This document shows, one piece after another, positions 1 to 63,605 of a stretch of 64,000 nt of DNA. Source of the DNA: Mobula birostris (taxonomy: Eukaryota); NCBI RefSeq assembly GCF_030028105.1, contig NC_092378.1:100863731-100927730 (forward strand), in the 5' to 3' direction. The translations under genes were made by a program, and so were the position numbers. Positions within the stretch are counted from its first letter, which is position 1; every line of letters begins with the position of its first letter. Below the pieces are notes generated by a model. It did not search any database. It saw only the letters and a program-made list of their open reading frames with translations, and was not told the DNA's origin.

Positions 1-2734
1 GCCTCAGTGGAAAAAGCCTGCTTGCATTCACTCTATCAATACCCATCATAATTTTATATACCTCTATCAAATCTCCCCTCATTCTTCTACGCTCCAGGGA
101 ATAAAGTCCTAACCTATTCAACCTTTCTCTGTAACTGAGTTTCTCAAGTCCCGGCAACATCCTTCTAAACCTTCTCTGCACTCTTTCAACCTTATTTATA
201 TCCTTCCTGTAATTTGGTGACCAAAACTGTACACAATACTCCAGATTCAACCTCATCATAACATTCCAGCTCTTATACTCAATACTTTGATTAATAAAGG
301 CCAATGTACCAAAAGCTCTCTTTACAACCTTATCTACCTGTGACACCACTTTTAGGGAATTTTGTATCTGTATTCCCAGATCCCTCTGTTCCACTGCACT
401 CCTCAGTGCCTTACCATTAACCCTGTATGTTCTAGCAACACTCATCAAAGTTGCTGGTGAACGCAGCAGGCCAGGCAGCATCTGTAGGAAGAGGTGCTGC
501 CTGGCCTGCTGCGTTCACCAGCAACTTTGATGTGTGTTGCTTGAATTTCCAGCATCTGTAGAATTCCTGTTGTTTCCTGTATGTTCTACTTTGGTTTGTC
601 CTTCCAATGTGCAATACCTCACACTTGTCTGTATTAAACTCCATCTGCCGTTTTTCAGCCCATTTTTCCAGCTGGTCCAAGTCCCTCTGTAGGCTCTGAA
701 AACCTTCCTCACTGTCTACTACACCTCCAATCTTTGTATCATCAGCAAATTTGCTGATCCAATTTACCACATTATCATCCGGATCATTGACATAGATGAC
801 AAATAACAATGGACCCAGCACTGATCCCTGTGGCACACCACTAGTCACAGGCCTCCACTCGGAGAAGCAATTCTCTACTACCACTCTTTGGCTTCTTCCA
901 TTGAGCCAACGTCTAATCCAATTTACCACCTCTCCATGTATACCTAGCGACTGAATTTTCCTAACTAACCTCCCATGCGGGACCTTGTCAAAGGCCTTAC
1001 TGAAGTCCATGTAGACAATATCCACTGCCTTCCCTTCATCCACTGTCCTGGTAACCTCCTCGAAAAACTCCAATAGATTGGTCAAACATGACCTACCACG
1101 CACAAAGCCATGTTGACTCTCCCTAATAAGTCCCTGTCTATCCAAATGCTTGTAGATTCTGTCTCTTAGTACTCCCTCCAATAACTTACCTACTACCGAC
1201 GTTAAACTTACTGGCCTATAATTTCCTGGATTACTTTTCGATCCTTTTTTAAACAACGGAACAACATGAGCCACTCTCCAATCCTCCGGCACCTCACCTG
1301 TAAACAGTGACATTTTGAATATTTCAGCCAGGGCCCCCACAATTTCAACACTAGTCTCCTTCAAGGTCCGAGGGAACATCCTGTCAGGTCCCGGGGATTT
1401 ATCCACTTTAATTTTCCTCAAGACAGCAAGGACCTCCTCCTTTTCGATCTGTACAGTTTCCATGATCTCACTACTTGTTTCCCTTAATTCCATAGACTTC
1501 ATGCCAGTTTCCTTAGTAAATACAGACACAAAAAACCTATTTAAGATCTCCCCCATTTCCTTTGGTTCCTCACATAGCCGACCACTCTGATCTTCAAGAG
1601 GACCAATTTTATCCCTTACAATCCTTTTGCTCTTAATATACCTGTAAAAGCTCTTTGGATTATCCTTCACTTTGACTGCCAAGGCAACCTCATGTCTTCT
1701 TTTAGCCCTCCTGATTTCTTTCTTAAGTATTTTCTTGCACTTCTTATACTCCTCAAACACCTTATTTACTCCCTGCTTCCTATACATGTCATACAACTCC
1801 CTCTTCTTCTTTATCAGAGTTGCAATATCCCTTGAGAACCAAGGTTCCTTATTCCTATTCACTTTGCCTTTAATCCTGACAGGAACATACAAATTCTGCA
1901 CTCTCAAAATTTCTCCTTTGAAGGCTTCCCACCTACCGATCACATCCTTGCCAGAGAACAACCTGTCCCAATCCACGCTTTTTAGATCCTTTCTCATTTC
2001 TTCAAATTTGGCCGCCTTCCAGTTAAGAACCTCAACCCTAGGACCAGATCTATCCTTGCCCATGATCAAGTTGAAACTAATGGTATTATGATCACTGGAA
2101 CCAAAGTGCTCCCCTACACAGACTTCCGTCACTTGTCCTAACTCGTTTCCTAACAGGAGATCCAATATTACATCCCCTCTAGTTGGTCCCTCTATATATT
2201 GATTTAGAAAACTTTCCTGAACACATTTTACAAACTCTAAACCATCTAGACCCCTAACAGTATGGGAGACCCAATCAATATATGGAAAATTAAAATCCCC
2301 TACCACCACAACTTTATGTTTCCTGCAGTTGCCTGCTATCTCTCTGCAGATTTGCTCTTCCAATTCCCTTTGCCTATTGGGTGGTCTGTAATACAATCCC
2401 ACTAATGTGGCCATACCTTTCCTGTTTCTCAGCTCCACCCACAAGGACTCAGTAGACAAGCCCTCTAATCTGTCCTGCCTGAGCACTGCTGTAATATTTT
2501 CCCTAACAAGCAATGCCACTCCCCCACCTTTCATTCCTCTGCCTCGATCACATCTGAAACATTGGAACCCTGGAATATTAAGCTGCCAGTCCTGCCCCTC
2601 CTGTAGCCAAGTTTCACTATTTGCTACAACGTCATAATTCCACGTGTCAATCCCCGCCCTCAACTCATCCGCCTTCCCCGCAATACTCCTAGCATTGAAA
2701 TATATACACCTCAGAAAATTTTTACCAACACTCA
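1..2734 (-). mobile_element. CR1 LINE copy A, ORF2 (APE endonuclease + reverse transcriptase), interrupted by a 141-bp PLE insert at 435-575; runs off window start
   Basis: ORF 432..2819 has APE motifs (YFNARS, ETWL, GDFN, SDHN) and RT motifs (DFSKAFD, GVPQGSVLGP, FADD). The frame continues below 434 (RVNGKALRSAVEQRDLG...LEYCVQFWSP...ERRRMRGDLIEVYK). The first ~28 aa of the predicted ORF come from the tail of copy B. Confidence 0.95.
435..575. mobile_element. Miniature inverted-pLTR Penelope-like insertion (hairpin)
   Basis: 46-bp arms at 435-480 and 495-540 are near-perfect reverse complements, followed by a 35-nt one-sided extension (541-575). TSD cctgtatgttcta at 422-434 and 576-588. Sequence matches the end of the PLE at 58011-58778. 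Confidence 0.85.
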
Positions 2735-4277
2735 TAGAAAACATAGAAAATAGGTGCAGGAGTAGCCCTTTCGGCCCTTCGAGCCTGCACCGCCATTTAT
2801 TATGATCATGGCTGATCATCCAACTCAGAACCCTGCACCAGCCTTCCCTCCATACCCTCTGATCCCCCTAGCCACAAGGGCCATATCTAACTCCCTCTTA
2901 AATATAGCCAATGAACTGACCTCAACTGTTTCCTGTGGCAGAGAATTCCACAGATTCACCACTCTCTGTGTGAAGAAGTTTTTCCTAATCTCAGTCCTAA
3001 AAGGCTTCACCTTTATCCTCAAACTGTGACCCCTCGTTGTGGACTTCCCCAACATCGGGAACAACCTTCCTGTATCTGGCCTGTCCAATCCCTTTAGGAT
3101 TTTATACGTTTCAATCAGATCCTCCCTCAATCTTCTAAATTCCAACGAGTACAAGCCTAGTTCATTCAGTCTTTCTTCATATGAAAGTCCTGCCATTCCA
3201 GAAATCAATCTGGTGAACCTTCTTTGTACTCCCTCTCTGGCAAGGATGTCTTTCCTCAGATTAGGGGACCAAAACTGCACACAATACTCCAGGTGTGGTC
3301 TCACCAAGGCCTTGTACAACTGCAGTAGTACCTCCCTGCTCCTGTATTCGAATCCTCTTGCTATAAATGCCAGCATACCATTCGCCTTTTTCACTGCCTG
3401 CTGTACCTGCATGCCCACTTTCAATGACTGGTGTATAATGACACCCAGGTCTCGTTGCACCTCCCCTTTTCCTAATCGGCCACCATTCAGATAATAATCT
3501 GTTTTCCTATTTTTGCCACCAAAGTGGATAACTTCACGTTTATCCACATTAAATTGCATCTGCCATGAATTTGCCCACTCACCCAACCTATCCAAGTCAC
3601 CCTGCATCCTCTTAGCATCCTCCTCACAGCTAACACTGCCGCCCAGCTTCGTGTCATCCGCAAACTTGGAGATGCTGCATTTAATTCCCTCATCCAAGTC
3701 ATTAATATATATTGTAAACAACTGGGGTCCCAGCACTGAGCCTTGCGGTACCCCACTAGTCACTGCCTGCCATTCTGAAAAGGTCCCGTTTATTCCCACT
3801 CTTTGCTTCCTGTCTGCTAACCAATTCTCTATCCACATCAATACCTTACCCCCAATACCGTGTGCTTTAAGTTTGCACACTAATCTCCTGTGTGGGACCT
3901 TGTCAAAAGCCTTTTGAAAATCCAAATATACCACATCCACTGGTTCTCCCCTATCCACTCTACTAGTTACATCCTCAAAAAATTCTATGAGATTCGTCGG
4001 ACATGATTTTCCTTTCACAAATCCATGCTGACTTTGTCCGATGATTTCACCGCTTTCCAAATGTGCTGTTATCACATCTTTGATAATTGACTCCAGCAGT
4101 TTCCCCACCACCGACGTTAGGCTAACCGGTCTATAATTCCCCGGTTTCTCTCCCTCCTTTTTTAAAAAGTGGGGTTACATTAGCCACCCTCCAATCCTCA
4201 GGAACTAGTCCAGAATCTAACGAGTTTTGAAAAATTATCACTAATGCATCCACTATTTCTTGGGCTACTTCCTTAAG
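2735..4277 (-). mobile_element. CR1 LINE copy B, 5'-truncated, nested in copy A
   Basis: ORF 2825..4111 is an RT C-terminal half (DFQKAFD, PQGSVLGP, FADD, LEYCVQFWSP). 3' tail (catagaaaa)x2 at ~2733-2750. Flanking cactca at 2729-2734 and 4278-4283; copy A reads through (KVVSVGKNFLRC) when B is removed. Confidence 0.92.
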
Positions 4278-4995
4278 CACTCACAACCTTTCTATCAGTG
4301 GATTTGCTTGAACTTTTAACATAGTTTATTTTCACCCCAGCCACACTGTCAGCTCTGGCACTCTGGTTCCCATCCCACTGCAAATCTAGTTTAAAGCCCC
4401 CCCAATAGCATTAACAAACCTCCCTGAAAGGATATTGGTCCCCCTGTAGTTCAAGTGTAACCCGTCTCTCTTGTACAGGTCCCACCTGCCCCAGAAGAGG
4501 TCCCAATTATCCTGAAATCTGAAACCCTGCTCCCTACACCAGTTCCTCAGCCACTTGTTCATCCTCCAGAGCATCCTATTCCTACCCTCACTGGCATGTA
4601 GCACAGGTAGCAATCCTGAGATTACCACCCTCGAGGTCCTGCTTTTCAACTTCCTACCAAGCTCTCTATACTCACTCTCCAGGGCCTCCTCACTCTTCCT
4701 TGCTATGTCATTGGTACCGATGTGCACCACGACATCTGGCTGATCACTCTCCCACTTCAGAATGTCATGCAATCAATCAGAGACATCCTTGACCTTGGCA
4801 CCCAGGAGGCAACAAACCATCCTGGGTTCTCTGTCACGACCACAGAACCTCCTATCTGCACCTCTAACTATCGAGTCCCCTATCACTACCGCTCTCCTCT
4901 CTCTCCCCCCTCCCTTCTGCACTGCAGAACCAGACTCAGTGCCAGAGATCCGGCTACTGCAGCTTGTCCCAGGTAAGTCATCCCCCCCAACAATC
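4278..4995 (-). mobile_element. CR1 copy A 5' part: ORF1 SGNH-esterase domain with one nonsense codon
   Basis: In-frame ORFs 4773..5003 and 4386..4772 give VIGDSIVR...GAKVKDVSD*LHDIL...HIGTND...DGLHLN, the GDS/GxND/DxxH blocks of CR1 ORF1 esterases. Confidence 0.9.
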
Positions 4996-5177
4996 CCTAA
5001 CAATCCAGTGCGCTTGTTAGGGATTGTTGCTGTATTTTACTTGAAATCTTTTAGATGAAGTTTATCATAATCACGCGAGTGTAGAATATTTGTTTACTCC
5101 GATTAATATTGGAGAAAGTATTACCAAGCAAAATGTTTTGGTTTTCATTACTTGATAGTGTGTTCTGTTATTGCCAG

Positions 5178-5292
5178 ATTGGACAGTATATTATGTCCTT
5201 GCCTCTGCATCTGGAACCCTTTGTGACACAGGAGGATCCAGCACTTGAGTTGGCACTGCATTCTGGAAAACTCCCATACCCTCCAGAGCAAG
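5178..5292 (+). CDS. COG7: COG7 third-to-last coding exon (115 nt)
   Basis: ttgccag|ATT...CAAG|gtaagg; encodes [38 protein letters not shown](G), recognisable as vertebrate COG7. Phase 1 matches the next exon. Confidence 0.95.
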
Positions 5293-6284
5293 GTAAGGAG
5301 AGATGGGTAGCTAACTGTGAGTAAAGTCAGGTAAAGTTAAGTCCAGAACTATCATGATCATGTTAAATGCTGGAACAAGTTGACGAGAAGTTACTGTCCG
5401 ATCCTTTTGCACCTGGGCAAGAAATACATGCTTCTGTTTGGTTCAGAAATTTCACTGCAAAAGCATTTTATCCTGCATAATCAAATCAAAGTCTTTAGTA
5501 TTTGCTCATTATCCATTTCAGATGGGAATTGGTGATGATGTAGGCTCCTGTGACTGCTGTTTGAAGTTGCTTAATTCTCAGTTGTTATGTCTGCATGATA
5601 GAGTTTTTGTTTGAATAAGGATTTGAGTCTTATTCGGGGTCTGGGTTTGAATGGAGTTCTAACGAAGTGGAAGTCCTTCATAACTGCAAATGTTGAGTCA
5701 GTATCCAAATTTCACCAAAATGCAAAAGCTTGCATTTCTGAAGCACCTTTTAAAAATGAAATATTAAACAACAATATGAGAAGTGAGGGAGGGGGAGATA
5801 AGGAAGATGGGCTTGAAGAAGGATTTTGAAAACATCTGATAAAGCAATGAGTGTTCAAGGACAGAATTAGGCAAATTTTGCTAATAATGGTTTTGAAGAA
5901 GGACAGCACTACTTTCAAAGATCATTACAGACTCAGGTTGGGGGGTGGTGTGCAGAGGTGAGAACCAGGCTGTAGCATGAAATCCACATTTAAAACTCAC
6001 AGAGGTAGTTCGATCTTATAAAAGATTTACAAATTACAAATAATTTCTAAAACACACTGGATTTCCAAAATACAGATACAATTCCGATAAGCTAAAAAGA
6101 CACACCAGTGAGTTGTAGACAAACGATTCACATGTCACAGATACTGAAGACAGAGGAACGAATTATAGTCACCCCATCTTTCTGTCATTCTTCTTGTTGT
6201 TCCTTGGCCATTCCTAACAAGGCTGACTGCCTTGTACTGTTTTTGTGCCACTTGTGTGACTTCACACAGATGGTCTAAAATCTT

Positions 6285-7528
6285 CTACCTCTGTTAGATT
6301 GCATGTGGATTGTGAGTGAACAGCCCTTTTTAAGTCCAGCCACAAATACTCATTTGGTTTGAGGTCTGGACTCTGACTTGGCCACTCCAGGACATTAACT
6401 TTGTTGTTTTTAAGCCATTCCTGTATAGCTTTGGCTTTGTGCTTGGGATCATTGTCGTGCTGGAAAACAAATTTCCCAAGTGGCAGTTCTCTTGCATGCT
6501 GCGTCAGTTTTTCCTGCATTTATTTTACCCTCTACCTTCACAAGACTTCCAGAGCCTGCTGCAGTAAAGCATCCCCGCAGCATGATGTAGCCACCACCAT
6601 GCTTCACGGTAGGGGTGGTATGTTTTTGATGTGTGGTGTTCGGCTTATGCCAAACAGTGTTTAGTCTGATGGCCAAAAAGCTCAATTTTGGTTTCATCAG
6701 ACCATATAACCTTCTTCCAGCTGACTTAAGAGGCTCCCACATGCCTTCTGGAAAATGCTATGAGATTTCATGTGAGTTTTTTTCAACAGTGGCTTTCTCT
6801 TTACCATTCTCCCATCTTAGGCACTGAAGCTTGTAACTCCTTCAGAGTTGTCATAGATCTCCTAATGGCCTCCCTCACTAGTCCCTTACTTGCAGGGTCA
6901 CTCAGTTTTTGAGAACAGCCTGCTCTAGGCAGATTTACAGCTGTGCTGTATTCTTTCCATTTCCTGATGATTGACTTGGAAATCAAAGGGATTCCAAGGG
7001 ATAGTCAGTGACTTGGAAATTTTCTTGTATCCATCTCCTGACTTGTGCTTTTCAACAATCTTTTCATGGAGTTGTTTGGAGTGTTCTTTTGTCTTCATGG
7101 TGTAGTTTTTGTCAGGATACTGACTCACCAGCAGTTGGACTTTCCAGATACAGGTCTATCTTTACTACAACCAATTGAAACATCTTGACTGCACACAGGT
7201 CTCCAAACACAGATCTCCATTTAACTAATTATGTGACTTCTAAAACCAAATGGCTGCACCAGTGATGATTTGGTGTATCATATTAAAGGGGAAGGGTGTG
7301 AATACATATGTATGGGGTCTTTCTACACATATGCAATCAATTATTTGGTGTTTTGTTTTGTAATTAATTTAGATCACTTTGTAGTGATCTGTTTTCACTT
7401 TGACATGAAAGTCTTGCTTTGTTGTTCAGTGTCAAAAGAGCCAAATTAAATTCACTGTGATTCAATGTTGTAAAACAACAAAACATGAAAACTTCCAAGG
7501 GAGGGTGAATACTTTCTATAGGCATGTA
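6285..7528 (-). mobile_element. Tc1-like (DD34E) DNA transposon fossil, 3' end missing
   Basis: Frameshifted transposase from ATG 7098: [70 protein letters not shown]. One terminal repeat ~7290-7526 contains two gggtg(tg)aatac motifs and is followed by TA. Confidence 0.92.
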
Positions 7529-7529
7529 C

Positions 7530-8345
7530 TTCATGTTCAAGAAGGTAACAGGGATAATCCATGTAATTATAGGCCAGTTAATGTTGGTGGTCGGAAAATA
7601 ATTAGAACAAGTTTAACCCACACTTGGAAAGACTCTGCTTAGCTAGGAACAATTCACAGATTTGTTGGTGGGAGATTGTCTGAATGATCTAATTGAGTCT
7701 TATGAAGAGGTAACTAAATATTTTAATGAGTCCAATGCAGTTGATGTAACTTACCGTCAAAGGTCTTACTGAAGTACAAGGTGTCACGTGGTAGGCTTGT
7801 CTAAAAAAATTTAGAGCCTATGGGATCCAAGGCAACTTGACAAACTAGATCCAATATTGGCTTGGTAATAGGAAACAGAGAGTGGCAGTGGAGGGTTGCT
7901 TTTGTGCTTTGAAGTTTGTAACCAGCAGCGTATCACAGAGATTGATGCTGGAATCATTATTTGCGATCAACATTAACAACCTGGATGTGAATACCAGTTT
8001 ACAGGTGATACAAAAATGAGTGATGGTGGTGATAATGATGAGTGCTGTCTACAGAATTATATTAATCTGCTGGTAAGATGGGCAGGGCATTGGCAGATAG
8101 ATTTTAACTCTGACAAGTGTAAGATGATGTATTATGTAAGGATAGGACAAATACCATGAATGATAAGTATTGTGGAACAAAGAAATTTACTGTAAAGACC
8201 AAGAATCCTGAAATTGTAGCACAGATGGAGAGGATGGTGAAAAAGGCATATGGAATGCTCATCTTTATTTGCTGGGACATGGGGTATAAGAACAGGGAGG
8301 ACTTGGTATGATATTATCAAACATTGGTTGGGCCACAGTCAGAAT
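7530..8345 (+). mobile_element. Decayed CR1 RT fragment
   Basis: Remnants of DNPCNYRPV, the EEVT region, rvavegcf and KKAYGML, with many stops. Confidence 0.75.
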
Positions 8346-19820: not shown

Positions 19821-20815
19821 AACAGAGAACAATACAGCACACTACAGGCCCTTTGGCCTTTGATGATGTACTGACCCTTTAACCTACTCCGAGATCAATT
19901 TCACTCTTCTCTCTTACATAGCCTTCCATTTTTCTTTCATACTTGTGCCTAACTAAGAGTTTATTAAATGTCCCTAATGTATCTGTCCCCGGCAGCGCAT
20001 CCCATGCCCCTGGCACCACCCCAGCAGTCAGTCCCATGCCCCTGGCACCACCCTGGCAGCGCATCCCATGCCCCTGGCACCACCCCGGCAGTCCGTCCCA
20101 TGCCCCTGGCACCACCCCAGCAGCGCATCCCATGCCCTTGGCACCACCCCAGCAGCGCATCCCATGCCCTTGGCACCACCCCGGCAGTCCGTCCCATGCC
20201 CTTGGCACCACCCCAACAGTGCATCCCATGCCCCTGGCACCACCCCGGCAGCGCATCCCATGCCCCTGGCACCACCCCGGCAGTCCGTCCCATGCCCCTG
20301 GCACCACCCCGGCAGTCCGTCCCATGCCCTTGGCACCACCCCGGCAGTCCGTCCCATGCCCCTGGCACCACCCCAGCAGTCCGTCCCATGCCCCTGGCAC
20401 CACCCCGGCAGCGCATCCCATGCCCCTGGCACCACCCCAACAGTGCATCCCATGCCCCTGGCACCACCCCGGCAGCGCATCCCATGCCCTGGCACCACCC
20501 CGACAGTCCGTCCCATGCCCCTGGCACCACCCCGGCAGCACGTCCCATGCCCCTAACACCACCCCGGCAGCACGTCCCATGCCCCTGCTACTTGTGTAAA
20601 AGGCCAACCTCTGACATCCTCCTATGCTTTACTGCCAAACAACTTAAAAGATGTGTCCCCTTGTATTAGCCATTTCCACACTGGAAAAATGGTGCTGGCT
20701 GTTCATTCTATCTGTGCCTGTTATTGTTTTGTACACCTCTATCAAGTCACTTCTCATCTTCCTTCTCTCCAATGAGAAAAGCCCTACCTCACTGAACCTA
20801 TCCTCATAAGATATG
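19821..20815 (-). mobile_element. CR1 3' fragment hosting a minisatellite
   Basis: CR1 tail at ~19821-19985 (DTLGTFNKLLVRH) and RT C-terminal remnant at 20590-20815 flank the array. Confidence 0.8.
19987..20587. repeat. 32-bp GC-rich minisatellite, ~19 copies
   Basis: Unit ccccggcag(cgcat|tccgt)cccatgcccctggcacca; cccatgcc recurs at 20001, 20033, 20065 and onward. Confidence 0.97.
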
Positions 20816-34887: not shown

Positions 34888-37800
34888 TGTAGTGTATTTA
34901 ATATTTCAATTATATTTGAGTAATACTGTAAAATATTGTTTGATTAAGCACTCTTTGTTTATATAATTCATTATATGTAACAAGTATGTGCACGGCATAT
35001 TTCACATTACACCATCACGTCATATGTGAGTACCTCAATAAAGAAAAGAACTAAGTAGACAATTATCTCAGGCTCCCCTGTTTTTCTTTCGATTAGTTTC
35101 TGAAGTTAAAAAGCATAACAGTGGTGATGAGGAACTTTTAAAATAAACCCGAGATGACTACCTACCTGTTGAAGTGCAGCACATTTTTCTTCAAAAGGGG
35201 AGAGAGACGGTCCAGTTAAAAAAAAAGGCAGGAAACTGATGAAATTAACAAGCAGCGAGAGTGCTGCCACGGGTTCATAAATAGTGAGTACTGGGTGACA
35301 ATAATAAAATTTTAAAAAAGCAGAAATGGCAGGTTACATTGGAAAGATAGACATGTTCAATTGCGCATCAGATAACTGGATAATGTATACTAAATGAATT
35401 GGGAAGTATTTTGAGGCAAATGAAATAGCCAATGAGAAATGAGTACCAGTGTTGCTGAGTGTATTGGGTGGAAGATTATACAGTTTACTTAGAAGTTTAA
35501 CTGCTCCAACCAAACCAGCCAAATTGAGCTTTGCTGGTAAGGTGAATGTAAGGCAGTAACATTTAGAACTGAAACCATTGTTGATTGCAGAAATGTTTAG
35601 GTTTCATAAACAGAATCAAAAGTGAGGGTAGTCCATTGCAGCTAATGTGGCTGAATTTAAGAAATTGTCCCAGCATTGTCAGTTCAGTGATGGGCTTAAA
35701 GATGCACTGATAAACTTTAATTTGTGGAATCTTACAAGAAAATATTAAAAAAATGACCCCTAACCAAAGCACAACTCACATTTAAAAGAGGAGTTGAAAT
35801 TGCTATATCAATGGAAACAACAGCTAGAGTCGCAATTGAGTTGGTCAGGAATGAATGCGAGTGTGAACAAAATTGCAATGTAAAACAGAAACCTTCCTGG
35901 CTGAACAAATTGTGCTACCATTGTGGCAGGGGCTTGCATTCACCAAACCAATGCAGGTTTAAACACAAAACTTTCATAAAATACAACAAAGTAGGTCATA
36001 TACAAAGAGCAAGAGCATGACAAAAATAAATGGACTGCATAGGGAAGAGAAAAACATTAAAAAGTCAAGTTGCAGTTTCTAAAAGAGCACTAATCTACAT
36101 GCTGTTGATGAAAAATCTGGTAATGATGAGAGTGACACAGGACTGAGTAGCCTTGAAATTGACAGTGTGAAAGCACACAAGAGACGAGCAATATGACTTA
36201 CATCAGAAGTGAACGGCAAATTAATTAAAATGGAAATGGACATTGGCTTGGCTGTTGCAGCAATTCCACAAAACACTGCAGTGTTCGAGGGTAACACTGC
36301 AGTGTTCGAGGGTGACACTGAAAAACTCAAACATTTCAAGGGTAAAATAGTGCTAAATGAAAATGCCACACCCAAGTTTTACAAAGCATGTCCAGTTCCT
36401 TATACTCTCCATAATAAAGTAGCCTGTGAGCTAGATTGTATGGAGGCTGAAGGAATTCTTTCCAAGGTTGAGCACACGGGCAATGCCAGTGGTCCCAGTA
36501 GCCAAGAAGAAGAGCCTGTCAGGATCTGTGGTGATTTTAAGGTCACCATCAACCCAGTGCTGAAAATAGATCAATAACCCCTGCCCAGGATAGAGAATAT
36601 CTTTGCAAACCTTTCTGGAAGGAAAACTTCAGCAAATTGGACTTAGCTGAGACCTATCTACAGATGGAGATGGAAAAAGAGCACAAGTTATTTCTCATGA
36701 TAAATACCAAAGGGCTTTATTGCTATAATAGGCTTATTTTTTGTAGCATCTGCACATGCTTTCTGACAGAAAGCTATGGACCAGGTGCTACAAGGCCTCC
36801 CAGGGACTCAGAGTTACCTGGATGACATCGTTGTTTCTGGCAATGATGACAAGGAACATCTCCAAAATTTCAAGACATTGTTAAAAAGATTAGAAGATTA
36901 TGGGTTCAGAGCATGATACAACACGTGTGAATTCTTTAAACCAAGCATCACTTACTGTAGTTACACCACTGACTCACAAGAATTACACAAATGCGTCAAG
37001 AAAAATCAAACAGTGGTGGATGCCTCAAGGCCAAAGAGAGTGTCACAGTTGTGGTTCTTTTTAGGATTTGTCAATTATTCTAAAAGGTTCCTACCAAACC
37101 TGGCTACTGTGCTTTACCCCTTGAAGTCATAAGTACAGATCACAAAGAAATGACAATGGATAAAAACAGAGTGAGGTGGTTTTCAAAAAGGTAAAGGAAA
37201 TAGTGACATCAGACATTGTACTCACACACTGTGATCCACATCGTCCAGTAAAGCTCGCCTGTGACACCTCACCTTATGGTACAGGTGCAGCCATGTCACA
37301 TGTTATGAGTGATAGAAGCAAATGCCCCATAACATTTGCATCTCGTTCCCTTACCACTGCAGAGAAAATTATGCACAGATTGACAGAAAGGCCTTGAGTC
37401 TGGTTTGGGGTGTAAAATATTTCTACCAGTACCATCAACCACTAGTGGCCATTTTCAATCCACAGAAGGGTGTTCCACTAACAGCGGCACCACAAATGCA
37501 GAGATGGGCTCTGTTTCTTGGAGGATACAACTACAAGATCGAATTCAAGAGAACAACTCATCATGGAAATGCTGATGGATTGTCCCATTTACCCTTGGAA
37601 AAGGAAATACCTGAAAAATTGACAAAAGAGGACACTTCTCTAGACATATTCTCCCTAATGGCAAGCCAAAAGTCTTCCTATTACCGCAGAAATGATCTAA
37701 AGGGAAAGCAGAAAAGACCCCAGACTGTCTCAGATTTACATGGCCACCCAAAATAGCTGGAATGTGCAGCGGAACTCCAGTTTCCCTGTTTTTACCAGCG

Positions 37801-38989
37801 CCAGGATGCAGGTTGCCTTATGTGGGGATTGTCAGTTGTTGTACCATGAAAGCTGAGAGCTGAAGTGCTGGAGGAGCTATATGCCTGTCATCTAGGCATG
37901 ATCAAAATGAAAGCATTGGCTCGAAGCTTTGTCTGATGTCCTGGGACAGATCAGCAGATCGAACAGCTTGCCGCGTACTGTTCAGAATGCCAAGAGCAGC
38001 ACCTCTCCATCCCTGGGAATGGCCTGCATTGCCCTGGCAGAGGATTCATGTAGATTTTGCCAGACCTATCATGGGCACAAATTTCTTGGTAGTAATGGAT
38101 GCAGCGACAAAGTGGCCAGAAGTGGTCTCAATTGCCTTGTCTACATCCTTAAACACTGCTGATGCATTGAGAAGACTCTTCTCAAGAACTGGTGTTCCAC
38201 AGTTTTGTGGAACAGTTTCAGGCATTCCTGAAAATGAATGGACTAGGACATACTACATTTGCACCGTACCACCACAACTGGTAGAATGGCCTGGTAGAAA
38301 GGTTTGTCCAGTGTTTAAAGAACACACTGTGAGCAACATCAGCAGAACACACTACACTGTCACTGAATCAGAAGCTCACCAGTTTCTTCCTTGCATATTG
38401 CACTGCAGCACACTCCACAACCAACAACTCAACAGCTATGTTGTTCCTAGGTCATCCTTTGTGTTCACACTTGGATCTCCTCAAACACAATCTTAGATGG
38501 AGTATGCCGCACAAACAGCTGAGACAAATTGAGGGATCCTCAAACAGGGAGGTTTGATGTTTCACTTCTGGACAAGCATTCCTGGTGAGGGATTACAGAG
38601 GTGATCAAACGTGGGTTCTTGGAAAGATTAACGACAGAGCTAGACCACTCTCCTACACAGTGGAGATTGTGTCTGATATCATCTGGAGACAACACCTTGA
38701 TCAGCTGAGGAGAGCACAGTCAATTGTTAGAGAAGAATGATGTCCAGAGCAGTCAGAACCAGTTCCTGCAGTCCCAGAATCAACTCCTTCAACCACCTTG
38801 GAGGAGGCTACAAGTCTTTCCTGCCAAGCAGATTGATTTCTTCCCCCCCCACCCCCCACGTCAAGAAAGATGTTATCCCACAAGAGTAAGAAGTCCTCCA
38901 CAGCAATTAAATCCTTAGGCCAGAATGGGAAAATTAAAACTTACTCTGTTGTGGATGTCAATAAAGTAGTTGTATCATATCATATACTC

Positions 38990-40739: not shown

Positions 40740-40818
40740 TTGCAGGGTTGCTTGCATATCTCCAGGCATTTGGAATTCTCCACCTCAATCTGCTCTCTCA
40801 GAGTGTAATAGCAGTAAC
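40740..40818 (-). CDS. SCNN1B: SCNN1B exon 9 (79 nt)
   Basis: ttcaccag|GT...TGCAA|gtgagt; encodes (G)YCYYTLREQIEVENSKCLEICKQPC(N), thumb-domain cysteines. Phases match both neighbours. Confidence 0.94.
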
Positions 40819-41250: not shown

Positions 41251-41654
41251 TTTTTATTTATATACACACATTCTTTTTCTCTCTCTCCCTTTTCTCCGTC
41301 TGTCCCTCTCACTATACCCCTTGCCCATCCTCTGGGTTTTCCCCCCTCCCCCCTTTCTTTCTCCCTAGGCCTCCTGTCCCATGATCCTCTCGTATCCCTT
41401 TTGCCAATCAACTGTCCAGCTCTTGGCTCTATCCCTCCCCCTCCTGTCTTCTCCTATCATTTTGGATCTCCCCCTCCCCCTCCCACTTTCAAATCTCTTA
41501 CTAACTCTTCTTTCAGTTAGTCCTGATGAAGGGTCTCGGCCTGAAACGTCAACTGTACCTCTTCCTAGAGATGCTGCCTGGCCTGCTGTGTTCACCAGCA
41601 ACTTTTATGTGTGTTGCTTGAAATTCCAGCATCTGCAGATTTCCTTGTGTTTGC
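41251..41654 (+). mobile_element. Young PLE 3' end with hammerhead motif
   Basis: TSD atactatgttctt at 41238-41250 and 41655-41667; closely matches the reverse complement of 58011-58410. Confidence 0.9.
41519..41555 (+). ncRNA. Minimal type-I hammerhead ribozyme motif (core intact, stem I mismatch)
   Basis: AGUC CUGAUGA AGGGUCUCGGCCU GAAA CG UC AACU; the base after the cleavage site is A rather than G. Confidence 0.65.
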
Positions 41655-57245: not shown

Positions 57246-58010
57246 ATTAATTAACGCCCTCATTACAATACTAACATGACCCTATCAATGTACTACTCTG
57301 TCTACCATCCATGGGGTAGAGAAATGCCAATTTAATGTACTGTCTTTAATCCTTGATGGGATCATGTCACTTTACCACACCCTCTACAATCAGCAATAGA
57401 ATGCTGCGAATGTATAACTCCCTTCTACCGGTGATGGAGACCCGTGGAAGAAAAGCTCCTTCTGTACACAACAATGCAACTCTATAAGTTCAATACACTT
57501 TCTACAGTCAGTTTTGCATATTCTATGCAGAATCTGATGGGTCACTTTTGGTTGTGGCACTTTGCGCACACACTGGTCAGCAGCTAAGAGGTTAATGCCC
57601 ACTCCACTCCACAGCCTGCGTTATAAACTTGTTAATTAATACAGTCAATTGTCAATGATGGGACAAAATTAAAAACACTCACTACAATTATTGTATGGTT
57701 CTTGTTAACAGGATGAACTAACAAGTGGTCCTCACGGAATGCTGTGATGAGACGCTGTCAATTAACTTCATTACAGTATTTGCAATCTATAATGAGCAGT
57801 TCATTACAATCTCTGCTGTGCCATTGCATTTCACACAACACACTCTTTACAGAGGGTGACTGAAGCCTGCCAATTTAATAGGCCTGAATTCTGTCAATTT
57901 TGCCCACTCACAGTTAATGGGTAAGTCCACACCATCAGTTGAATGTGCCTTTTCTAATCCGTAGACATGCTCTCTATAATTCGTCAAGTAAATCACCACA
58001 TTGGAAACCT

Positions 58011-58778
58011 CAAACAACAGGAATTCTGCAGATGCTGGAAATTCAAGCAACACACATCAAAGTTGCTGGTGAACGCAGCAGGCCAGGCAGCATCTGTAGG
58101 AAGAGGTGCAGTCGACGTTTCAGGCCGAGACCCTTCGTCAGGACTAACTGAAGGAAGAGTGAGTAAGGGATTTGAAAGTTGGAGGGGGAGGGGGAGATCC
58201 AAAATGATAGGAGAAGACAGGAGGGGGAGGGATAGAGCCAAGAGCTGGACAGGTGATTGGCAAAAGGGGATACGAGAGGATCATGGGACAGGAGGTCTGG
58301 GAAGAAAGACAAGGAGGGGCAGGGGGACCCAGAGGATGGGCAAGAGGTATATTCAGAGGGACAGAGGGAGAAAAAGGAGAGTGAGAGAAAGAATGTGTGC
58401 ATAAAAATAAGTAACAGATGGGGCACGAGGGAGAGGTGGGGCCTTAGCGGAAGTTAGAGAAGTCGATGTTCATGCCATCAGGTTGGAGACTACCCAGACG
58501 GAATATAAGGTGTTGTTCCTCCAACCTGAGTGTGGCTTCATCTTTACAGTAGAGGAGGCCGTGGATAGACATGTCAGAATGGGAATGGGATGTGGAATTA
58601 AAATGTGTGGCCACTGGGAGATCCTGCTTTCTCTGGTGGACAGAGCATAGATGTTCAGCAAAGTGGTCTCCCAGTCTGCGTCGGGTCTCGTCAATATATA
58701 AAAGGCCACATCAGGAGCACCGGACGCAGTATATCACCCCAGTCGACTCACAGGTGAAGTGTTGCCTCAGCTGGAATG
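58011..58778 (-). mobile_element. Penelope-like element (Neptune-type), 5'-truncated: GIY-YIG endonuclease, 3' UTR, hammerhead, tail
   Basis: 58770->58444 translates to LRQHFTCESTGVIYCVRCS*CGLLYIDETRRRLGDHFAEH...VATHFNS...EEQHLIFRLGSLQPDGMNIDFSNFR*. TSD cattggaaacct at 57999-58010 and 58779-58790. Confidence 0.93.
58109..58146 (-). ncRNA. Minimal type-I hammerhead ribozyme, intact consensus
   Basis: U-AGUC CUGACGA AGGGUCUCGGCCU GAAA CG UC^GACU-G: stem I AGUC/GACU, core CUGAnGA and GAAA, GUC triplet, palindromic ACGU in place of stem III. Confidence 0.8.
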
Positions 58779-59429
58779 CATTGGAAACCTGATCATTAAC
58801 ACATTCTCTGTTACCCATGGCGGGGCCCAGCCAATTGAATATAAGATTTTTGATGGGACCCTCACTTTCCCTTTTCCAGTTTAAAACATATTCTACATTC
58901 TGTGACAGTATGACACCAATTTAATGCTCTCTCTAAAATCCATGATGGGATACTGCCAAGTTAATACATTTCCAACGACCAAATTGTGATGGGGTCTTCT
59001 CAATGTAATGCCATATATATTATTCAAGATAAACCTTCTGGGTTTAATATTTCTCTACAATTTACCAATTTAATATTTGAAGAAGGAGCCTCAATTTGAC
59101 ACAGTCGACAGTCTGTAATGGAATACAGTCATCTCAAAGCACTGTCTACAATGGTGATACATAGGGAATCTTGGTCAGTTTAAAGGCTGTGTACGATTTG
59201 TAGTGGGTCACGGGCAATGTATTCATTTCCATTGCCCTTGATGGAACTCTGCTTTTAAAATATTCAGTATAATCTCTCGTGAAATTCACTCTAAATTTGT
59301 GATTGAACGTTGCCAATTTAGTCCACCATATGCACACAGTCGACTTAACACACACTCCATAATTCATGAAGGAACCCAGCCGAGTTAACATAAACTTAAC
59401 CTGCATTGGAAACTCATTAATTCCTCCCA

Positions 59430-63487: not shown

Positions 63488-63605
63488 CCCAACTCGGATT
63501 ATCCTGCTGGTTACAGTAGTGTGCTCCCTCAGGTAGAGGGTAAGTTTGATGCCCACATCCACAGTTCTGCACCATCTGATCCTGGAAACAGGAACGCAGG
63601 CAGGT
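63488..63605 (-). CDS. SCNN1B: SCNN1B exon 8 (118 nt); gene continues beyond the window
   Basis: ctattcccag|ACC...TGGG|gtaagt; encodes TCLRSCFQDQMVQNCGCGHQTYPLPEGAHYCNQQDNPSW(G). Not in the ORF track; found by manual translation. Confidence 0.96.

Follow-up and report, generated by a model that had tools for sequence, protein, structure and literature searches.

The locus examined here raises the question of whether a self-cleaving ribozyme motif that lies on the sense strand of an intron can cut, and so regulate, the pre-mRNA in which it is carried. The motif is found in SCNN1B of Mobula birostris, within a 64,000-nucleotide stretch of contig NC_092378.1 (positions 100,863,731 to 100,927,730), hereafter the window, to whose first letter all coordinates refer unless they are given for the contig. 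A first-pass annotation, made from the sequence alone, had proposed that the motif acts as a trans-acting, concentration-dependent switch. Our analysis leaves that proposal unsupported: the motif is one of 22,090 identical copies, its intactness fits its age, its fold is predicted to be masked, the active dimer is predicted to be unfavourable, and splicing is reported to tolerate hammerhead-cut introns. It is very probably an inert passenger that belongs to a known class of Penelope-like element (PLE) ribozymes, and that rarely or never cuts the pre-mRNA.

A minimal hammerhead of a published class

Sequence and folding define a minimal type I hammerhead motif on the minus strand at 58109-58146, which reads, from 58146 to 58109, UAGUC, CUGACGA, A, GGGU, CUCG, GCCU, GAAA, CG, UC, and GACUG. 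The outer arms, UAGUC and GACUG (58146-58142 and 58113-58109), form a stem I of four Watson-Crick pairs plus one U.G, so that helix I has the 4-5 bp of type I. They enclose a CUGACGA core of the CUGANGA class (58141-58135); a single extra A between positions 9 and 10.1 (58134); a stem II of GGGU with GCCU (58133-58130 with 58125-58122), closed by the loop CUCG; and GAAA (58121-58118). A GUC triplet is present at the predicted cleavage site, and the hammerhead numbering places the predicted scissile bond, C17 to G1.1, between 58114 and 58113. The helix III loop is absent and 15.1-16.1 is palindromic; in the place of helix III stands ACGU (58115-58118), which, on the dimer model of PMC4209133, would pair with its counterpart in a second copy of the motif.

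Re-reading the minus strand thus bore out the first-pass annotation as to the complete set of core nucleotides, the paired stem I, the GUC, the predicted cut at 58114/58113, and the palindrome replacing stem III. It had also called stem II G-C-rich, and this was mistaken: the pairs are G.U, G-C, G-C, and U.G, that is, two Watson-Crick pairs between wobbles, and the normally highly conserved G10.1-C11.1 pair, which is not part of the definition used by the minimal hammerhead (min-HHR) descriptor, is here a G.U, at a cost of about 1.9 kcal/mol by nearest-neighbour energies. A search of the literature returned no measurement for a G10.1.U11.1 pair.

The motif is a member of the PLE min-HHR class (Cervera and De la Pena 2014, PMC4209133), for which the same architecture was defined and thousands of dispersed single copies were reported in vertebrates. 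It has the CUGANGA...GAAA...UH core, no helix III loop, the type I arrangement, and a position at a PLE terminus. Rfam models gave no matches at the gathering score in the 64-kb window, and no hammerhead family at E<=10 in 58011-58300. The motif is not a product of chance, since a search of 4.01 Gb with the pattern reversed gives 0 matches. That such motifs need a second copy to form stem III, as the annotation had stated, is a trait described for the class: a single min-HHR did not cleave, and dimers and trimers cleaved at a low level (PMC4209133). Relative to the min-HHRs described there, most ray copies have U at 11.1, and helix II is short (4 pairs, 2 wobbles). The passages and two supplementary files of PMC4209133 that were searched do not name cartilaginous fishes (another supplement may list such motifs), and we found no literature on ribozymes of Penelope-like elements in cartilaginous fish, for which bioRxiv supplements may list motifs. 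Whether PLE hammerheads act in living cells was described as still unclear in PMC8557442.

The insertion and its host gene

The best match of the last SCNN1B exon is SCNN1B of Hemitrygon akajei (89%), and tblastn places exons of the gene, all on the minus strand, both inside the window, where there are six, and in 200 kb of sequence beyond it, where there are another six. With tblastn exons on either side and in the sense orientation, the motif lies between coding exons 7 and 8 of 12, in agreement with its first placement in intron 8, a number that we take to follow the human gene and to assume a non-coding exon 1. Two minus-strand exons identified with the Hemitrygon akajei protein delimit the host intron, which has normal borders and a length of about 22.6-22.7 kb: coding exon 7 (exon 8 in human; 63488-63605, with AG/GT borders) and coding exon 8 (exon 9 in human; 40740-40818, also placed by its borders). 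The motif is 5.3 kb past the former and 17.3 kb ahead of the latter.

The sequence carrying the motif is a 768-bp, 5'-truncated Penelope-like element on the minus strand (58011-58778), made up of the end of the endonuclease (EN) frame, a 3' UTR, the hammerhead, and a terminal tail. It is flanked on both sides by a perfect 12-bp target-site duplication (TSD), CATTGGAAACCT, at 57999-58010 on the left and 58779-58790 on the right. The hammerhead lies in the 3' UTR, ~300 nt past the endonuclease stop codon. The annotation had described the 3' UTR of a young GIY-YIG PLE with a perfect TSD, and of this the TSD and the order of frame and 3' UTR stand; the copy itself is a dead fragment, in which the GIY-YIG endonuclease remnant (58447-58778, minus strand) is interrupted by one stop codon and has Asp where YIG has Gly. 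Pfam returned no GIY-YIG match in this broken frame in the window. When compared with the majority of 11 young copies, the insert differs at 12 of 764 columns (1.6%), including the stop in the endonuclease frame. The 768-bp unit could have been a non-autonomous element whose 5' end is fixed, a possibility that we rejected: the 11 hits in 10 loci that extend to its 5' end all continue upstream into linker coding sequence.

The insertion is likely common to the ray and a related species, and older than the split between them. In contigs of this relative (one sample, two runs), 23 of 869 bases differ in one flank and 14 of 670 in the other, and the contigs enter the element by 24 and 28 bases at the two junctions, which is below our bridging standard of 31 bases for a shared insertion, and then break at the same points as do contigs of the species itself. 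No empty-site joint occurs among the contigs of the relative that were listed. One sequencing run, presumed to be of RNA, contains contigs of the family but leaves most of the unique flanks uncovered, which carries no information on whether the SCNN1B locus is expressed.

The same intron also holds an antisense copy of the element (41254-41653, plus strand), 91.3% identical over 403 columns that span the hammerhead and 16.4 kb from the sense copy. This antisense copy has its own 13-bp TSD, sits 0.4 kb ahead of the next SCNN1B exon, and has a hammerhead without the first stem I pair. The other sense copies had been described as decayed, which holds within the window and fails just outside it, where an intron of SCNN1G contains an identical, intact sense motif (contig 100974207-100974244, minus strand), carried by a PLE end of 286 bp and separated from the SCNN1B copy by 52 kb. 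The coding span of SCNN1B has no second intact sense motif. An intact motif with the G10.1-C11.1 pair (contig 100951887-100951924, minus strand) lies in the stretch that separates SCNN1G from the SCNN1B start codon, at a distance of 11.7 kb upstream of that codon and head-to-head with an inverted copy; it may fall within SCNN1B intron 1, if the first exon is beyond the motif. The 263 kb around the window contain 33 family motifs (<=12 mismatches), five of them identical to the SCNN1B copy.

Some further features of the region can be recorded here. At 430-575 a small head-to-head PLE stub (97% identity) ends a CR1-like ORF (432-2867, minus strand, 811 aa open). SCNN1B intron 9 contains decayed Gypsy-like pol fragments recognized by eye (36197-38496, plus strand), with protease, RT, RNase H, and integrase-like stretches. 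A G+C-rich tandem repeat of ~30-bp units (19879-20669) has long open frames on both strands, and in SCNN1G, at about contig position 100970100, or 106041-106373 when the numbering of the window is carried on past its end, two exons are split by a ~90-bp intron through which tblastn reads.

A Neptune/Nematis-type family

Longer copies of the family extend upstream, via a CX4CX2C linker, into a Penelope-type reverse transcriptase (RT). One has a 662-aa open frame with RT motifs (YIDD) and, at its C terminus, GIY-YIG, two carry the linker CKRNKCYTC (CX2-5CxxC between RT and EN), and a less damaged copy matches PF01541 with an E-value of 2.6e-4 and 21.7 bits, just under the cut-off of 22.6. From features given by Craig et al. 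(2021, PMC8557442), the element is assigned to the Neptune/Nematis EN+ type. Features in common with the elements described there are an RT with a GIY-YIG behind it at the C terminus, the motif of which includes two cysteines; a CX4CX2C linker ahead of the GIY-YIG; and heavy 5' truncation, inverted 5' partners, and an optional 30-40-bp tail. Clusters of 3' ends in the ray family fall near element positions 730 and 765, ~35 bp apart. Unlike the Neptune/Nematis elements of PMC8557442, the ray copies have clear 10-14-bp TSDs in ordinary sequence.

Non-LTR retrozymes also have type I hammerheads, related to PLE termini, and in vertebrates these are dimer-dependent (PMC7229834, 10.64898/2026.07.22.740005); eight of nine Xenopus retrozyme dimers did not cleave, and the ninth was very efficient (10.64898/2026.07.22.740005). 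The same two sources describe retrozymes as head-to-tail repeats of 170-400 nt with canonical hammerheads and circular RNAs, whereas the ray insert is a single TSD-flanked, truncated PLE end with an endonuclease coding remnant. We rejected a retrozyme identity because the 768-bp insert is single and there are no short head-to-tail units with a canonical hammerhead.

In an active element, as the literature suggests, two motifs on one RNA, provided by partial-tandem pLTRs, would pair via ACGU, and the resulting double hammerhead would process the element's own transcript. Among nine long copies and five loci with close motif pairs, no partial-tandem pLTR with two hammerheads around an ORF was found; all are separate or truncated insertions. 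Young 5' ends do not accumulate at the cut site among the 57 hits with at least 90% identity, a comparison of low power, and the 5' starts of these hits are spread across element positions 610-720. In a set of 53 copies that were chosen for having a complete motif, 12 start <=3 bases from its front edge and five have a short upstream stretch. Copies that start at the motif front, and so without the upstream masking sequence considered below, may mark the start of the element RNA.

Copy number and age as the probable explanation of the intact motif

The exact 34-nt motif is present in 22,090 copies in the 4.01-Gb genome. If positions 7 and 11.1 are allowed to be C or U the count is 30,596, even on both strands, or one per 131 kb; this copy number is higher than the 4,000 copies of coelacanth and 9,000 of Xenopus (PMC4209133). 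U11.1, which makes the G.U pair, outnumbers C11.1 (G-C) four to one (24,435 of the 30,596 vs. 6,161). U11.1 is a subfamily trait; we rejected CpG decay private to the SCNN1B copy because all 22,090 exact copies share U11.1 while their other CpGs are intact. The subfamily with the predicted weaker stem II is the more successful one.

At the genome density, the chance of a sense copy is 8% for a 22.6-kb intron, 17% for the 47.6-kb SCNN1B coding span, and about 8% for SCNN1G, the last two being higher at the local density. If introns are assumed to make up 30-50% of the genome, they should contain 2,600-7,600 sense copies in all. Each single CpG transition in the motif reaches no more than 6-11% of the exact count; an unchanged motif is therefore nothing unusual in a young copy, and selection is not needed to account for it. 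The intactness of the SCNN1B motif is what the age of the copy predicts: it is young, not kept. The core-breaking change G8A was counted 1,424 times, as against 2,345 for C7U in the same CpG and 2,142 for a loop II change. This deficit hints that source elements kept a working core, and sequence context can also shift CpG rates. When G8A is compared with tolerant sites, disabling changes show no excess genome-wide.

These counts bear on the proposal that the motif was exapted as a trans-acting switch, pairing with a second motif RNA (the nascent SCNN1G transcript or PLE RNA), cutting intron 8, and thereby tuning ENaC beta output. The motif is intact and in the sense orientation, the neighbouring gene, which encodes a further ENaC subunit, has an identical sense copy, and the insertion, being likely common to the ray and a related species, has persisted for a while, all of which speaks for such a switch. 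Yet there is no sign of selection on the SCNN1B copy, and both ENaC copies are explained by chance (~17% and 8%). With the predicted masked fold and unfavourable dimer described in the next section also against it, we consider exaptation highly improbable.

Predicted folding and dimerization

For the bare 38-mer, the predicted probabilities of stem I and stem II are about 0.9. With native flanks of 15-200 nt both fall to <=0.03, a collapse that is attributed, in the predicted structures, to pairing of a pyrimidine-rich stretch immediately upstream (58147-58160, minus strand) with the CUGA core and the 5' side of stem II. Among 36 copies in which the upstream sequence is retained, none exceeds a stem I probability of 0.5, compared with 0.62 without it. 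A hairpin selected as an off switch was considered and is not borne out, because 32% of 200 shuffled upstream sequences mask the motif equally (shuffle mean 0.08); this frequency points to a fragile fold and not to a designed switch. According to these models, with no helix III and a predicted fold probability of <=0.03, the lone motif would fail to fold by itself in its native context.

Pairing with a second copy is not predicted to remedy this. Nearest-neighbour energies, which omit tertiary contacts, Mg2+, and proteins, place the active swapped dimer at -11.5 kcal/mol, a pair of monomers at -23.1, and an inactive duplex at -30.3, so that the active dimer lies ~11.6 kcal/mol higher than the separate monomers.

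The antisense copy at 41254-41653 could, in the same kind of model, also mask the sense motif through a competing duplex of ~400 bp, for which the predicted energy is -714 kcal/mol. It has to be asked whether any effect on the pre-mRNA would come from this double-stranded RNA, through editing or intron looping, and not from catalysis. The identity and predicted stability of the duplex, the presence of both arms in one intron, and the closeness of the antisense arm to the next exon are in keeping with such an effect; the 16.4 kb between the arms and the commonness of inverted pairs in the repeat-rich ray genome weigh against it, and we judge it quite improbable.

Strand bias and consequences for splicing

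If intact sense copies cut nascent RNA they should be depleted from introns, a strand bias that the first-pass annotation had put forward as a check. We looked for it in six giant genes, found by clustered same-strand Laminin G exons, without modelled gene limits, and sampled in eight 200-kb blocks (1.6 Mb). These Laminin G-rich genes are presumably neurexin- and CNTNAP-like. The 1.6 Mb contain 147 family motifs (<=11 mismatches), 14 intact and 133 broken. Of the intact copies, 4 are sense and 10 antisense (binomial p=0.18), a sense share with a 95% interval of 0.08-0.58, and the broken ones are split 65 to 68 (Fisher test against intact, p=0.17); among copies without an inverted neighbour, one intact copy is sense and six are antisense (Fisher p=0.12). 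Two of the 10 antisense copies scored as intact carry a GUU triplet. The check came out in the predicted direction without reaching significance: 4:10 is the trend expected if intact sense copies cut and are purged. Moreover, depletion would mark intact sense copies as mildly harmful and not as switches.

A weakly active, mildly harmful by-product is the reading that such a trend would favour. Intact sense copies would sometimes cut nascent RNA and be slowly purged from introns, the partner being any of thousands of motif-bearing RNAs, perhaps aided by chaperones, and the SCNN1B copy would be tolerated and non-regulatory. The 4:10 ratio set beside 65:68 in broken copies, the G8A deficit, the abundance of potential partners, and the under-representation of retrozymes in Xenopus introns (10.64898/2026.07.22.740005) are all consistent with it. 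On the other hand, none of the three p-values is significant and the interval spans 0.5, two of the 10 antisense copies taken as intact have GUU, both ENaC genes carry intact sense copies, and the 57 young hits have no 5'-end pile-up at the cut site. We regard such by-product cleavage as unlikely.

A cut, if it occurred, would probably have limited consequences. At the human elongation rate of 3.8 kb per minute (PMC2995048), the next SCNN1B exon is reached ~4.5 minutes after the motif. As summarized in PMC2995048, a hammerhead cut left the efficiency of intron splicing unchanged (Dye et al.), and splicing was prevented only by a fast HDV ribozyme (Fong et al.). There is precedent for a regulatory intronic ribozyme in the HDV-like ribozyme of CPEB3, which is proposed to tune its own mRNA (PMC10919898); like this ribozyme and the conserved intronic hammerheads of amniotes (PMC6765202), the SCNN1B motif is of a self-cleaving kind and lies in the sense orientation within an intron of its host gene. 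However, the CPEB3 ribozyme is monomeric, with a half-life of 2-3 min, unlike min-HHRs (PMC10919898), and the CPEB3 and amniote ribozymes are rare and conserved (PMC10919898, PMC6765202), whereas the SCNN1B motif is a young member of a repeat with >20,000 copies, needs a partner, and has no conservation signal.

The inert-passenger reading can then be put as a sequence of steps. A truncated Neptune-type insertion would have brought the motif into SCNN1B intron 8, where, alone and with no intact same-strand partner in the coding span, it would adopt the predicted off hairpin with its own upstream sequence. To cut, it would have to exchange strands with another molecule, an unfavourable step, in the few minutes that pass until the next exon is made, and exon tethering would likely bridge a rare cut.

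Implications for the element family

A more far-reaching idea is that the thousands of intact sense copies form a pool of half-ribozymes that cut in trans, with the SCNN1G and SCNN1B introns cutting one another only when the two genes are co-transcribed. We think this a very long shot. If it were true, two adjacent pre-mRNAs would be coupled via a transposon-derived ribozyme dimer, and trans cleavage between neighbouring pre-mRNAs would be a form of gene-to-gene coupling that we did not meet in the literature consulted.

The SCNN1B locus itself matters little, as it holds one ordinary copy. The family to which that copy belongs, which combines >30,000 nearly identical intact motifs with a far larger number of broken ones of comparable age, is a test bed for whether PLE min-HHRs cut in vivo, and the success of the G10.1.U11.1 subfamily raises the question of whether having a weakened ribozyme helps an element to spread.
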